Source: Escherichia phage vB_EcoM_JNE01
Sequence record: OR670491
DNA length: 64,000 nucleotides
Direction: 5' to 3' (one strand)
Shown here: positions 1 to 64,000 of the stretch, in pieces
Layout: each line of letters opens with the position of its first letter
Position numbering within the stretch: position 1 is the stretch's first letter
Position numbers and translations under genes: made by a program
Notes under the pieces: model-generated
What the model saw: only the letters and a program-made list of their open reading frames with translations
Databases searched by the model: none
What the model was told of the DNA's origin: nothing

Positions 1-29
1 ATGCACAAGTGAACTATAAGTGTTGACTT

Positions 30-692
30 ATGGCAAATCTAGTGATACAATGCAAGAAACAACATAAAGAGGGCAAAAAAGTGTATCGATTCATGAAGGA
101 AGTGTTTCAAGCAGTTATCGTTATGATGCTTATCAATTTCCCATGCAGTGCAGGTGTGGAACGAACAAGTGTCATGCGATATTATGAGGAACCTAATGCT
201 CTGGTGGTTATATCAGAGTTAACGGATGGTTCTGCTGACCGTATAATCAATTTTTACGATAAGACCCCATTCAAAACATTAATCATTACATCTCCAGGTG
301 GGAGTGTAGATGCAGGTCTGAAATTGGGTTCTTTAGTGAAAGAAAATGGAATTCAAGTGATTGTTGTAAAGTACTGCAACTCTGCATGTTCCCTCGTGTA
401 CTTCAGTTCACCGAAGGATAAGAGACTAATGGAAGATGATTCAGTACTTGGACTACATAACGTTTCAATTGAAAGCAAAGGGGGTGATGGTGATAACACT
501 TATGTGACTATTCGACAGTTGAAGCAGTTCACAGAGGAATTGTCATCTAAAGTAGGTTTTATGTTTACGTTGTACGCCAGTAATGGTATTCCTACAAACG
601 TACTAATGCGTATCGCAACTGCACGTGGTGATGATGTAATTGTTGTCACTAAAAAAGAATTAGAAGTTTGGGAAGCATCAATCCCTGACTGA
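30..692 (+). CDS. ClpP/S49-like serine peptidase family protein (start uncertain)
   Basis: Motif ITSPGGSVDAG resembles the ClpP/SppA NSPGGSV box; hydrophobic N-terminal segment (FQAVIVMMLINF); possible Ser/His positions (NSACS, GLHNV). Start may be upstream ATG or the internal MKEV. Confidence 0.45.
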   Translation: MANLVIQCKKQHKEGKKVYRFMKEVFQAVIVMMLINFPCSAGVERTSVMRYYEEPNALVVISELTDGSADRIINFYDKTPFKTLIITSPGGSVDAGLKLGSLVKENGIQVIVVKYCNSACSLVYFSSPKDKRLMEDDSVLGLHNVSIESKGGDGDNTYVTIRQLKQFTEELSSKVGFMFTLYASNGIPTNVLMRIATARGDDVIVVTKKELEVWEASIPD

Positions 693-765
693 TTATAATT
701 ACAAGAGGATGATATGTGTTGTACTCCCCTTGTAAAAAACATATAAAATACACTGGGATATTAAT

Positions 766-1026
766 ATGAGCACATTGCTTGATTGGATTTCAATCCTTTA
801 TTATTCAATTTTAGTTTTATACAGTTTCACTATTCTACTTTCCGTTGGAATGTATAAAGAATTTCGTAATGGTTTTTTGAATGAAAAAACTAATAAGTTT
901 GCTTCTAAATTCGAAGCAGTACTTTATTATTGTTTAGCTTCTGGATACATTACCTGTTTAGTACTAATGGGTATTCTTATGTATTTTATGGGAACCATTT
1001 TACAAGTTCTTCCATCTCTAAGTTAA
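766..1026 (+). CDS. small hydrophobic membrane protein
   Basis: 86 aa ORF, strongly hydrophobic, followed by terminator hairpin. Confidence 0.35.
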   Translation: MSTLLDWISILYYSILVLYSFTILLSVGMYKEFRNGFLNEKTNKFASKFEAVLYYCLASGYITCLVLMGILMYFMGTILQVLPSLS

Positions 1027-1032
1027 GTGAAT

Positions 1033-1060
1033 AAAAAAGGGAGCATAAGCTCCCTTTTCT
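1033..1060. terminator. bidirectional intrinsic terminator between convergent genes
   Basis: A-tract, GGGAGC-ATAA-GCTCCC hairpin, T-tract; sits between + gene ending 1026 and - gene ending 1064. Confidence 0.6.
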
Positions 1061-1063
1061 AAT

Positions 1064-61764: not shown

Positions 61765-61798
61765 TAAAGTTGTAATCAATAACATGGAGAGTTATACA

Positions 61799-62047
61799 AT
61801 GAGTCAAGAAAACCAACAAGAACAAGTTATCCAACTAGACCTAATCGACCTAATCAATGCTGCACGTATTCTAGAAGCTGCTGTTGCTCGTAATACTTTT
61901 ACCGTTGATGAATTGGTTCAAGTCGCACCAGTTGTTTCTAAAGTTGTTTCTTTTGCACAAACTGCACAAGCAGACATTGAAGCTAAAGAAGCAGCACGTC
62001 TTGCTGCTGAAGCTGGTGAAACTAACAACGTTCAAGAAGGGGAATAA
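61799..62047 (+). CDS. hypothetical protein
   Basis: Start refined to ATG 61799 (RBS ggagag); Ala-rich helical. Confidence 0.45.
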   Translation: MSQENQQEQVIQLDLIDLINAARILEAAVARNTFTVDELVQVAPVVSKVVSFAQTAQADIEAKEAARLAAEAGETNNVQEGE

Positions 62048-62049
62048 TT

Positions 62050-62691
62050 ATGGCTATTCGTCACACTGGTGTAATGCGTAATACAGGTTCACGAGTTTTC
62101 GTTGTATGGCGTGCACTACCAGATGATCCACAACATTGCTTGGTAATTTATCGTGATTCACTTCCAGAAGCATATGTATATGCCGTGACTGATATTGTCA
62201 ACAATCAAGGTCAAAGCTCAATCGACCTATGGGAAGTTATGCACAAGATTGGTTATCTAGATGGACGTAAAATGCTAGATGTTCTACACAATATGCAGTA
62301 CTTACATCGTGTTCGCACTTGTGACATTGATATGCATACTGGTGGTAACAACAAGATTTCTCTTGACGTTCTAAACGCTGCTATCGATGAAGGTAACAAA
62401 GTACACCAAGATAGCAAAGTAAAAGATTTCAATCCATTTGCACCACAAGAAGTTGATACCAGCGTTGAAGATGCTACTATCGTAGGTCAACTACTAGCTG
62501 ATGCTCGTAAACACGAGAAACTAGCTCAAGACTTCTATGAGCGTGCATATAACCTAGAACCTTCACTTCGTACTGAAGTTAAAGTTGAAGCAGTAACTCC
62601 AGGTACATTCACTGTTGAATTCCCTGAAGGTATTTCACAAACTAAAGCAATCGAACGTGTTAAGAAAGCTCTTGCAGAGCGTAAAGCATAA
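62050..62691 (+). CDS. hypothetical protein
   Basis: 213 aa, codon usage like highly expressed genes. Confidence 0.5.
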   Translation: MAIRHTGVMRNTGSRVFVVWRALPDDPQHCLVIYRDSLPEAYVYAVTDIVNNQGQSSIDLWEVMHKIGYLDGRKMLDVLHNMQYLHRVRTCDIDMHTGGNNKISLDVLNAAIDEGNKVHQDSKVKDFNPFAPQEVDTSVEDATIVGQLLADARKHEKLAQDFYERAYNLEPSLRTEVKVEAVTPGTFTVEFPEGISQTKAIERVKKALAERKA

Positions 62692-62696
62692 GTTCT

Positions 62697-63293
62697 ATGA
62701 AAATAACCGAATTAGATGAAGCAATTCGTGGCTTTTCTAATACGTTTTTCAGTGGCGGGGCAGATGGTGCTGACCGCCATTTTACATTATATGCTCTTGA
62801 AAAGGGATTCAATGTAATCAACTTTTCTTTCAGGGGTCATAATCATAGTGTAGATGAAGATACAATATTAGAAATACCTTCTCATATTTTATGTGATAGT
62901 ACAGTACTGAAACAATTAAACATGGCATGTTACTCTTTGCAGCGTAAAGTACCTAAGCCTGGTTCTTACGTATTCAACTTACTAGCACGTAATCGTTATC
63001 AAATTCTAAACACAGAACGAGTTTATTGTATTGCAAAAATCGAATCACCAACTAGAGTTAGTGGCGGTACTGCATGGGCAGTTCAAATGTATATGGATAG
63101 TGTTGACAATCCTGAAATCTATTGTTATGATATGAATTCAAAAAGTGTGTATACATTTGACAATACAAATAAAGAGTTCGTTGAAGTATTCACTATTCCT
63201 GCACCACATGGTAATTGGACAGGAATTGGTTCTCGAAATGCAACTGTTAAGCATTTTGAGCATTTCAAAACATTTTTCAAGGAAGACAAATGA
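62697..63293 (+). CDS. SLOG/DprA-like Rossmann-fold nucleotide-binding protein (tentative)
   Basis: FSGGADGADRHF and later SGGTAWAV motifs resemble SLOG superfamily (LOG/DprA/YpsA) glycine-rich loops; immediately upstream of thymidylate synthase. Confidence 0.35.
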   Translation: MKITELDEAIRGFSNTFFSGGADGADRHFTLYALEKGFNVINFSFRGHNHSVDEDTILEIPSHILCDSTVLKQLNMACYSLQRKVPKPGSYVFNLLARNRYQILNTERVYCIAKIESPTRVSGGTAWAVQMYMDSVDNPEIYCYDMNSKSVYTFDNTNKEFVEVFTIPAPHGNWTGIGSRNATVKHFEHFKTFFKEDK

Positions 63294-64000
63294 AACAACT
63301 ACAAGAGCTATATCAAAAAATTCTAGATGAAGGCGTAGAAAGCGTTGACCGTACTGGTGTTGGTACAATCAAACTAATCGGACAACAAATGCGTTTTGAT
63401 TTGTCGGAAGGTTTTCCAGCAGTGACAACTAAACGTTTAGCTTGGAAAGCAATGACCTCGGAATTGTTATGGTTCATTGAAGGTTCCCATGATGAACGTC
63501 GTCTATGTGAAATTCTACATGGTACTCGTGATTGGGAAAAAGTGACAATCTGGACTGGTAATTACAAAAACCAAGGTGTTAATCTTGGATACACCGATGG
63601 TGAGTTGGGTCCAGTTTATGGCAAACAATGGCGTTGCTGGGAAGATTACAAATTCAGTGCTGTTACCGAAGAAATTCAAGAATTGAAAGACAAAGGATAC
63701 AAAGTACTGGATTATACAGGTTCACATGGTGTTGTTATGAAACGCACCACTGACCAGCTAATGGATCTAATCAATGGTATCAAAGAAGATCCATACGGTC
63801 GTCGTCACATTCTTTCCGCATGGAACGTTGGTGAACTTGACCAAATGACATTACCACCATGTCATAGCTTTGTTCAGTTCTGTGTTGTTCAAGGTAAACT
63901 AAGCTGCATTCTACATCAACGTAGTGCTGATATGTTCTTGGGTGTTCCATTCAATATTAGTAGCTATTCTCTACTAACACATATTATTGCACAAATTACT
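63290..64000 (+). CDS. td: thymidylate synthase (5' part; continues beyond window)
   Basis: MKQLQELYQKILDEGVESVDRTGVGT...LAWKAMTSELLWFIEGS...RRHILSAWNVGELDQMTLPPCH (active-site PPCH); no stop before window end; ATGA overlap with upstream gene. Confidence 0.9.
   Translation, partial: MKQLQELYQKILDEGVESVDRTGVGTIKLIGQQMRFDLSEGFPAVTTKRLAWKAMTSELLWFIEGSHDERRLCEILHGTRDWEKVTIWTGNYKNQGVNLGYTDGELGPVYGKQWRCWEDYKFSAVTEEIQELKDKGYKVLDYTGSHGVVMKRTTDQLMDLINGIKEDPYGRRHILSAWNVGELDQMTLPPCHSFVQFCVVQGKLSCILHQRSADMFLGVPFNISSYSLLTHIIAQIT

Follow-up and report, generated by a model that had tools for sequence, protein, structure and literature searches.

The closest described counterparts of the element reported here are the highly iterated palindromes (HIPs) of cyanobacteria, HIP1 and its alternates (GCGATCGC; PMC4390886, PMC5861425), which are octameric palindromes occurring tens of times above expectation. 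Methyltransferases specific for the core of these palindromes occur alongside them (PMC4390886), and selection maintains the sites (PMC5861425). In a 64,000-base stretch of Escherichia phage vB_EcoM_JNE01 (record OR670491; the whole stretch is hereafter called the window) we find a palindrome of the same kind: the hexamer AGTACT and the octamer CAGTACTG exceed their order-1 Markov expectations 8-fold and 42-fold, respectively. As with HIP1, the sites occupy all reading frames as well as intergenic DNA and do not follow from codon usage; a 4-mer core is nested in a 6-mer and an 8-mer, with one-base deviations concentrated at the outer positions; sites persist between relatives more often than background; and the sequence flavour varies by lineage. 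In both cases orphan methyltransferases are found in the genome, although the phage enzymes are only candidates for a link to the motif. The phage motif differs from HIP1, and is new relative to the known HIPs, in belonging to a virus rather than a cell, in its AT-rich core GTAC in place of a GC-rich one, in its independence of a host that lacks it and in residing in a genome otherwise nearly stripped of restriction-type palindromes. HIP1 is periodic at 10–90 kb; the scales covered for the phage motif were short spacing and 1-kb bins, at which it is Poisson-distributed. The motif shows the features of the HIP class (genome-wide over-representation in all frames and intergenic DNA, a modest conservation above background, and outer-position deviations) and not the sequence of HIP1 proper, which has GCGATCGC or a GATC/CGATCG core: the phage octamer is CAGTACTG or AAGTACTT, and CGATCG has 0 copies.

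Two other classes of short word invite comparison. Chi, the RecBCD site, and the DNA uptake sequences of Neisseria and Haemophilus are copy-number-selected genomic words. They resemble the phage motif in occurring at about one per kb or less in all coding frames, in their weak selection with turnover and, possibly, in forming a self tag for a DNA-processing machine. They are, however, asymmetric and orientation-biased, while the phage motif is a strict dyad without an assigned cognate machine. The window contains no copy of the E. coli Chi octamer itself (GCTGGTGG); the close relative Escherichia phage Turkey5 (PQ471516.1) has 15 on its + strand and 6 on its − strand. Eco255I is an E. coli isoschizomer of ScaI. 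ScaI recognises the identical hexamer, AGTACT (PMC8919816), but the phage enrichment reaches into flanks that a hexamer-specific enzyme would ignore, and no cognate AGTACT endonuclease or methyltransferase was identified in the phage. No prior description of AGTACT iteration in jumbo phages appeared in the searched literature, which gave primers and unrelated uses; the genome paper of the relative CBB describes promoters and methyltransferases and not the AGTACT motif.

Exact counting in the window, which is 36.5% GC, gave 163 AGTACT (2.55 per kb), 42 CAGTACTG and 460 GTAC. The first 16 kb held 40 hexamers and 15 octamers, bearing out an earlier note on this DNA in which about 35 and about 15 had been counted by eye in that first ~16 kb. 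Markov models of orders 0, 1, 2 and 3 predicted 21, 20, 37 and 68 AGTACT and 0.7, 1.0, 2.5 and 5.6 CAGTACTG for the window, and the over-representation claimed in the note is confirmed (163 versus 21–37 and 42 versus 0.7–2.5 expected). AGTACT, GTACTG and CAGTAC were the top three over-represented hexamers under both the order-0 and the order-2 model, and CAGTACTG ranked first among octamers. The enrichment is nested: GTAC was found 460 times versus 222 expected and AGTAC 253 times versus 66, so that the excess grows by layer from about 2-fold for GTAC through about 8-fold for AGTACT to about 40-fold for CAGTACTG. After the GTAC family, the next over-represented k-mers contain TGGT (TGGT, GATGGT, CTGGTG), an excess that is probably codon-driven. 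The sites in the window are listed below; octamers are exact matches to CAGTACTG and, being palindromes, carry no strand.

1..64000, AGTACT hexamers, dispersed, n = 163 (starts 370, 443, 918, 960, 1196 ... 62297, 62903, 63703); consensus M-AGTACT-K, weakly TTCAGTACTGAA
3507..3514, CAGTACTG octamer
3633..3640, CAGTACTG octamer
4032..4039, CAGTACTG octamer
5283..5290, CAGTACTG octamer
5760..5767, CAGTACTG octamer
6497..6504, CAGTACTG octamer
9035..9042, CAGTACTG octamer
9338..9345, CAGTACTG octamer
10265..10272, CAGTACTG octamer
11590..11597, CAGTACTG octamer
12580..12587, CAGTACTG octamer
13799..13806, CAGTACTG octamer
14711..14718, CAGTACTG octamer
15722..15729, CAGTACTG octamer
15821..15828, CAGTACTG octamer
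19171..19178, CAGTACTG octamer
20387..20394, CAGTACTG octamer
20927..20934, CAGTACTG octamer
21790..21797, CAGTACTG octamer
23263..23270, CAGTACTG octamer
25257..25264, CAGTACTG octamer
27873..27880, CAGTACTG octamer
28443..28450, CAGTACTG octamer
33791..33798, CAGTACTG octamer
35295..35302, CAGTACTG octamer
36530..36537, CAGTACTG octamer
36691..36698, CAGTACTG octamer
36960..36967, CAGTACTG octamer; second AGTACT 20 bp downstream, at 36981
40423..40430, CAGTACTG octamer
41691..41698, CAGTACTG octamer
42110..42117, CAGTACTG octamer
42548..42555, CAGTACTG octamer
44288..44295, CAGTACTG octamer
46637..46644, CAGTACTG octamer; in a short gap ahead of the open reading frame (ORF) starting at 46662
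48681..48688, CAGTACTG octamer; within the tail sheath gene
50211..50218, CAGTACTG octamer; non-coding, followed by GATATAAT
52022..52029, CAGTACTG octamer
53321..53328, CAGTACTG octamer
54559..54566, CAGTACTG octamer
55256..55263, CAGTACTG octamer
58185..58192, CAGTACTG octamer
62902..62909, CAGTACTG octamer

An excess of this kind might arise from codon usage, from dipeptide content or dinucleotide bias, from a gene family present in several copies, or as a by-product of the removal of other palindromes. The result that speaks for such a compositional or coding artefact is the maximal-order Markov model, which expects 136 AGTACT and 37 CAGTACTG in the window, near the observed numbers. On the higher-order Markov check that the earlier note had proposed, the counts far exceed orders 0–3, and the maximal order nearly absorbs the signal, trivially so because AGTAC and GTACT, the words on which it conditions, already occur 3–4 times too often. 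Shuffling was applied to 92 non-overlapping ORFs covering 92% of the window (89 on the + strand). Synonymous-codon shuffling within each ORF left 40.1 ± 5.5 AGTACT versus 153 observed in ORFs (z = 20) and 2.6 ± 1.4 CAGTACTG versus 38 (z = 25); codon permutation gave 24.7 and 1.1, and the two types of shuffle together spanned z = 20–36, rejecting a codon or dipeptide artefact. Sites fell in every codon phase (66 as AGT-ACT, 55 as xxA-GTA-CTx and 25 as xAG-TAC-Txx, with 10 outside ORFs), and non-coding DNA was equally dense, in agreement with the claim of the note that the motif acts at the DNA level and not through codon pairs. Scarcity of the CAG-TAC-TGn octamer phase may reflect that TGA is a stop codon and that TGG and TGY are rare.

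Dispersion points the same way. At least one site was carried by 63 of the 92 ORFs (Poisson expectation 64.6), and the spacing of the sites in the window was Poisson. All 163 26-base contexts were distinct; flanks agreed between sites at a mean of 5.6 of 20 positions and reached at least 15 of 20 in just 1 of 13,203 flank pairs. A repeat family or dispersed mobile element is therefore rejected, there being no common sequence beyond the core, and confinement to one repeated gene family, which the note had raised as an objection, is contradicted. Loss of GGTACC and CGTACG could release about 14 cores at most. The AGTACT enrichment acts at the DNA level, and we consider an artefact next to impossible.

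The proteins encoded by this DNA carry its imprint. Across the ORFs of Turkey5, Ser-Thr dipeptides occurred at 1.50 times expectation versus 0.93 for Thr-Ser, and Val-Leu at 1.33 versus 0.90 for Leu-Val. AGT-ACT accounted for 52% of Ser-Thr pairs (16% expected) and GTA-CTN for 51% of Val-Leu pairs (22% expected), while the Tyr codon between xAG and Txx was TAC in 160 cases and TAT in 26, versus a background of 40% TAC. This directional dipeptide bias is caused by the DNA word AGTACT. A Turkey5 tRNA-Ser with anticodon GCU reads AGY, including the motif-inflated AGT (33% of Ser codons). Among the tRNAs of the Turkey5 cluster (36480–41754 of Turkey5 stretch L006) are Ser(GCU), Ser(UGA), two Thr(UGU), Leu(UAA), Gly(UCC) and Asn(GUU); ARAGORN placed a tRNA-Leu at 36480–36564 of the same stretch, differing from the record, and found an extra unannotated tRNA-Gly.

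The window matches ~78–142 kb of Turkey5 at 97.6% identity and PBECO4-type Asteriusvirus phages at 78–83%; judged by its sequence it is part of a RaK2-like jumbo coliphage, a myovirus with a genome of ~350 kb. Over the whole Turkey5 genome we counted 989 AGTACT versus 119 expected and 208 CAGTACTG versus 5.8 expected. Coding DNA of the core genome had 2.5 sites per kb and non-coding DNA 3.0; genes of the two strands had 2.7 and 2.3 per kb, and gene-length classes were alike. Counts per kb were Poisson (mean 2.53, variance 2.62), and a genome of 350 kb offers little power at the 10–90 kb scale. The denser exception is the tiny early genes at the genome ends, with 5–7 per kb. At 330–346 kb of Turkey5 about 12 paralogues stand in tandem on the minus strand, with annotations as RCC1/HERC1/Kelch-like repeat proteins, and in the adjoining 340–350 kb bin the counts are raised (132 GTAC and 52 AGTACT per 10 kb).

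Samples of ~45 kb from other phages and 50 kb from E. coli K-12 were compared. AGTACT was strongly enriched in PBECO4 (82 versus 12 expected), Klebsiella phage RaK2 (112 versus 11.6), Serratia phage BF (121 versus 13.5), Cronobacter phage GAP32 (110 versus 13.7) and Xanthomonas phage XbC2 (117 versus 16). Together with the window, these five other phages, from four genera and different hosts, carry 1.9–2.6 AGTACT per kb. The enrichment was absent from the distant relatives Vibrio phage 2.275.O (7 versus 11 expected) and Agrobacterium phage Atu_ph07 (2 versus 6), and from E. coli K-12 (3 versus 5–12; 0.06 per kb). The unrelated coliphages arall (0 versus 11.7 expected, Poisson P = 8e-6) and T7 (4 versus 13.2) deplete the motif. 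Enrichment in the phage-clade samples and not in E. coli makes this a feature of one phage clade; the inherited host feature entertained in the earlier note is rejected by the three copies in K-12 and by the depletion in the two unrelated coliphages. The AGTACT excess also runs counter to the trend for the same word in other coliphages. The favoured octamer varies by genus: Asteriusvirus and Alcyoneusvirus prefer CAGTACTG, Eneladusvirus prefers AAGTACTT, and Mimasvirus mixes the two.

Individual sites are conserved above background and nevertheless turn over. Window AGTACT sites were retained in Turkey5 at 95.7% (all hexamers 89.6%), PBECO4 at 53% (33%), RaK2 at 27% (17%), Serratia phage BF at 26% (16%) and GAP32 at 37.5% (17%). 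In a comparison limited to codons whose amino acid is conserved, AGT, ACT, GTA and TAC were kept exactly in 78% of cases inside the motif versus 57% outside (Cochran–Mantel–Haenszel stratified z = 5.3). Between genera 26–53% of sites share their position, with density constant meanwhile. The window and Turkey5 have 7 and 9 private sites, respectively; five could be polarised with an outgroup, and four of those five were gains. A steady 8-fold excess combined with a loss rate about half that of the average hexamer implies that new sites fix several times faster than neutral. Weak selection at a scaled strength near ln 8 (about 2) would produce this pattern, as would a conversion bias of the same effect.

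Information in the window sites lies in the six core bases and in positions −1 (C 0.44) and +1 (G 0.52). The flanks of the 208 Turkey5 octamers show a weak extension to TTCAGTACTGAA (T 0.43–0.47, A 0.46–0.53), with 14 exact 12-mers; the flank preference is palindromic and graded, and fades over ~12 bp. In Turkey5 the full octamer has an observed/expected ratio (o/e) of 36, and one-base variants fall to 11.5 at positions 1/8, 4.1 at 2/7, 1.6 at 3/6 and 1.6 at 4/5, so deviations concentrate at the outermost positions. An intact half-site alone was not enriched, which favours a reader that is itself symmetric and acts on duplex DNA, and disfavours an asymmetric signal in RNA or in a single strand. 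The suggestion in the earlier note of a binding site for a dimeric protein holds in part: the motif behaves as a full dyad, but no reader protein could be assigned.

Weak selection is not the sole process that could yield such a steady state. Biased repair or gene conversion might make and restore the palindrome as a functionless neutral equilibrium, and a methylation-dependent model of this type, resembling very-short-patch repair, was proposed by Elhai for HIP1 (PMC4390886). A uniform Poisson spread that takes no account of genes, strands or coding status and the fast turnover at constant density are compatible with it, as is the C5 cytosine methyltransferase described below. However, the expected substrates, one transition away from the motif, are not depleted (AATACT/AGTATT o/e 1.24; AGCACT/AGTGCT 1.61), and a very-short-patch-type signature is accordingly rejected. 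We noticed no gene of the Vsr type; an 'endonuclease' is annotated at Turkey5 321764, but it has no family match, its likeness to T4 endonuclease V was judged by eye only, and it was not treated as Vsr-like. Repair also sits poorly with amino-acid sequences bent towards the motif and with half-sites that gain nothing, and the genus-specific flank switch needs a changing reader. The conservation analysis of HIP1 favoured selection over repair (PMC5861425). We consider a repair origin for AGTACT rather unlikely, and selection the better account.

If selection is at work, the site might be bound without being modified. A dimeric phage DNA-binding protein or topoisomerase preferring the dyad, with occupancy scaling with copies, could be a nucleoid organiser, an early-promoter repressor or activator, a type II topoisomerase, or a recombination or packaging factor. 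Information fading over 12 bp, genus-specific flanks and the need for the full dyad resemble a protein–DNA interface rather than a sharp enzyme site. The self-complementary 4-bp GTAC with symmetric flanks would also suit the cleavage geometry of a type II topoisomerase, and these phages encode their own topoisomerase subunits.

Early promoters provide a further argument for binding. Positions 1–20000 of Turkey5 hold arrays of tiny genes, each with a near-identical promoter, at 5.6–7.1 AGTACT per kb. In these early-gene arrays AGTACT is built into repeated sigma-70-type promoters at fixed positions. In one form, AAAAAGTACTTGCAA-N17-TATAAT, it overlaps the 5' edge of the −35 box; in the other, TTGACA...AGTACTGTATAAT, AGTACTG supplies the TG of an extended −10. 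The two forms often stand together with their AGTACT sites 20 bp apart, and AGTACTGAATCA precedes terminator hairpins in the same region. Three places in the window are promoter-like:

2021..2055, + strand, sigma-70-like putative promoter TTGACA-N17-TACAAT, read as such from its consensus match alone; AGTACT (2050–2055) abuts the −10 box, 26 bp before the ORF at 2081
34149..34210, + strand, AGTACT pair 20 bp apart (34149, 34169), the second fused to TTGCAA-N17-TACAAT (AGTACTTGCAA); early-promoter arrangement, inside an ORF
42921..42949, + strand, promoter-like TTGGAC-N17-TATAAT; AGTACTG (42936–42942) fills the spacer and contributes the TG of an extended −10 (TGATATAAT); precedes the ORF at 43023, with the architecture of the Turkey5 early promoters

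These are a small minority of the AGTACT sites in the window, and in other genera only scattered instances of promoter embedding were found. Outside the early promoters no preferred spacing or periodicity was detected (short spacing, 1-kb bins), and this Poisson spacing speaks against a bound site, as does the liability of ~1000 unprotected ScaI-type sites. No candidate protein emerged: the promoter of a small Turkey5 'transcriptional regulator' contains AGTACT pairs, but this protein has no Pfam match and is confined to Asteriusvirus, and is thus not a clade-wide reader. We regard a bound, unmodified site as fairly unlikely, though less so than a repair origin. The window is otherwise almost uniformly rightward; 1064–1972 (− strand), hypothetical in Turkey5 (79124–80032), is one of just three minus-strand ORFs.

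The reader might instead belong to the host, with the phage sites acting as a sponge or lure for a host protein such as the nucleoid-occlusion factor SlmA, or titrating a defence or regulatory protein. SlmA, which is conserved in the host order, binds the 12-bp palindrome GTGAGTACTCAC with AGTACT at its centre, requiring G1, T2, purine 3, A4, G5 and pyrimidine 6 in both halves (PMC3020112), and dependence on copy number would fit titration. The outer bases G1, T2 and purine 3 are not favoured in the phage, which prefers C as the flank base, and flanks of the SlmA type are rarer than expected: full sites numbered 0 of 989 Turkey5 cores, and half flanks had a frequency of 0.016 versus 0.031 expected. 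SlmA is ruled out on these flank requirements. We know of no other host protein with an AGTACT site, and a sponge of any kind appears very improbable.

The same genomes are extreme in their avoidance of other palindromes. Of the 64 palindromic hexamers, 27 do not occur in the window at all. The 350-kb Turkey5 genome contains 0 copies of GCGC versus 240–380 expected and lacks 25 palindromic hexamers expected 5–48 times each, among them CAGCTG, CTGCAG, CCATGG, GGTACC, GCATGC, GTCGAC and GGATCC; EcoRI-, EcoRV- and NdeI-type sites are not purged. GCGC is also at 0 in the PBECO4, RaK2, BF, GAP32 and XbC2 samples. Among Turkey5 palindromes AGTACT is the sole upward outlier, the next most enriched reaching 1.7-fold. 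The contrast drawn in the earlier note with the usual depletion of palindromes in phages is supported. Restriction-site avoidance as known from phages applies to this genome in extreme form, and applies to AGTACT itself in T7 and arall, but the 8-fold enrichment here has the opposite sign to that predicted by avoidance theory. The sample of Klebsiella phage RaK2 has 12 copies of GGTACC, the KpnI site, a 3-fold enrichment; the window and the PBECO4, BF, GAP32 and XbC2 samples have none. Phage arall keeps GCGC (57 versus 39 expected) and avoids GGCC and CCGG, which suggests that its C5 methyltransferase, 50% identical to the jumbo-phage enzyme, protects GCGC.

Since AGTACT is a restriction target avoided by other coliphages, and since this genome purges palindromes, its ~1000 sites would have to be shielded. 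The earlier note had recommended a search of the proteome for a methyltransferase. None is encoded in the 64-kb window; two orphan methyltransferases, candidates for a link to the motif, are encoded elsewhere in the genome of the close relative Turkey5. One is a C5 cytosine methyltransferase of 286 aa (276796–277656), whose best solved relatives are DNMT3 catalytic domains and which has homologues in GAP32 (74%) and arall (50%). The other is an unannotated ORF of 175 aa (55185–55712; 'hypothetical protein' in the record) with an NPPY motif, which is a Dam-family N6-adenine methyltransferase of PF05869 (E = 3e-33). It adjoins a cytidylyltransferase-like gene clade-wide in synteny, the two ORFs overlapping by 4 bases; the match of this neighbour is weak, below the Pfam threshold. 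Identity of the Dam-family protein is 84–89% within Asteriusvirus, 63–70% in the Salmonella, Klebsiella and Erwinia members and ~42% in Eneladusvirus and Mimasvirus. DNA of the relative fEgEco12 was cut as predicted by EcoRI, HindIII, NsiI, SpeI, AflII, ClaI and others, and is thus not globally modified (PMC13070987). The predicted EcoRI, HindIII, NsiI and AflII patterns make non-specific adenine methylation by the Dam-family enzyme unlikely.

Our tentative reading, which we hold at rather less than even confidence, is that the phage lineage has in AGTACT a highly iterated palindrome of its own, which serves as a methylated self mark. About 1000 copies per genome would be held at ~2.5 per kb by a weak pressure on every potential site, one that overrides synonymous codon choice and inflates Ser-Thr and Val-Leu but is too weak to freeze positions. 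The benefit would scale with copy number, with weak selection per site. The reader of the complete dyad would be a phage-encoded protein that is itself symmetric and has shifted its flank preference from genus to genus. The result would be a dense self mark, with phage DNA ~40 times denser in sites than host DNA. The site would most probably be methylated by one of the orphan methyltransferases, either the small Dam-family N6-adenine or the DNMT3-like C5 enzyme, hiding ~1000 ScaI-type sites from restriction, and could tag the DNA for phage-specific transactions such as early-promoter control and replication, recombination or packaging.

Several points weigh against a methylated self mark. Protection by methylation explains why sites are tolerated, not their 8-fold excess. 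Neither candidate methyltransferase is linked to AGTACT by specificity, and both lie outside the window. Characterised PF05869 Dam-family members, such as phage T1 Dam, act on GATC. Phage arall has its 50%-identical C5 homologue and yet has purged AGTACT, so the C5 family does not simply track the enrichment and is weakened as its correlate. If GTAC were generally methylated, GGTACC and CGTACG need not be absent; both are. No spacing or periodicity hints at cooperative binding outside the early promoters, and the extra positional conservation is modest. The published fEgEco12 digests used enzymes other than ScaI and RsaI and do not address AGTACT (PMC13070987).

A more speculative extension, which we regard as doubtful as a whole, joins the enrichment and the purge into a two-part sequence identity code of RaK2-like jumbo phages. 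The positive tag would be the ~1000 AGTACT dyads, ~40 times denser than in the host and read by a phage-encoded symmetric protein; the negative tag would be GCGC and ~25 hexamers, absent from the phage and abundant in the host. If such a code exists, phage enzymes would distinguish unmodified phage DNA from host DNA by sequence alone, permitting selective protection, replication, recombination or packaging while host DNA is destroyed, with no need of T4-type base substitution.

Phages are the textbook avoiders of palindromes, and here an extreme avoider keeps ~1000 copies of a palindrome that other coliphages avoid. The puzzle of what HIPs are for becomes testable in a virus of 350 kb that offers two candidate methyltransferases, a target for the commercial enzymes ScaI and RsaI, and natural flank variants by genus. 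AGTACT also provides a simple k-mer signature of the clade in metagenomes. If it is a self tag, it would represent a new route by which a phage with unmodified DNA separates its own DNA from that of its host, and synonymous changes made when recoding jumbo phages for therapy would erase it.

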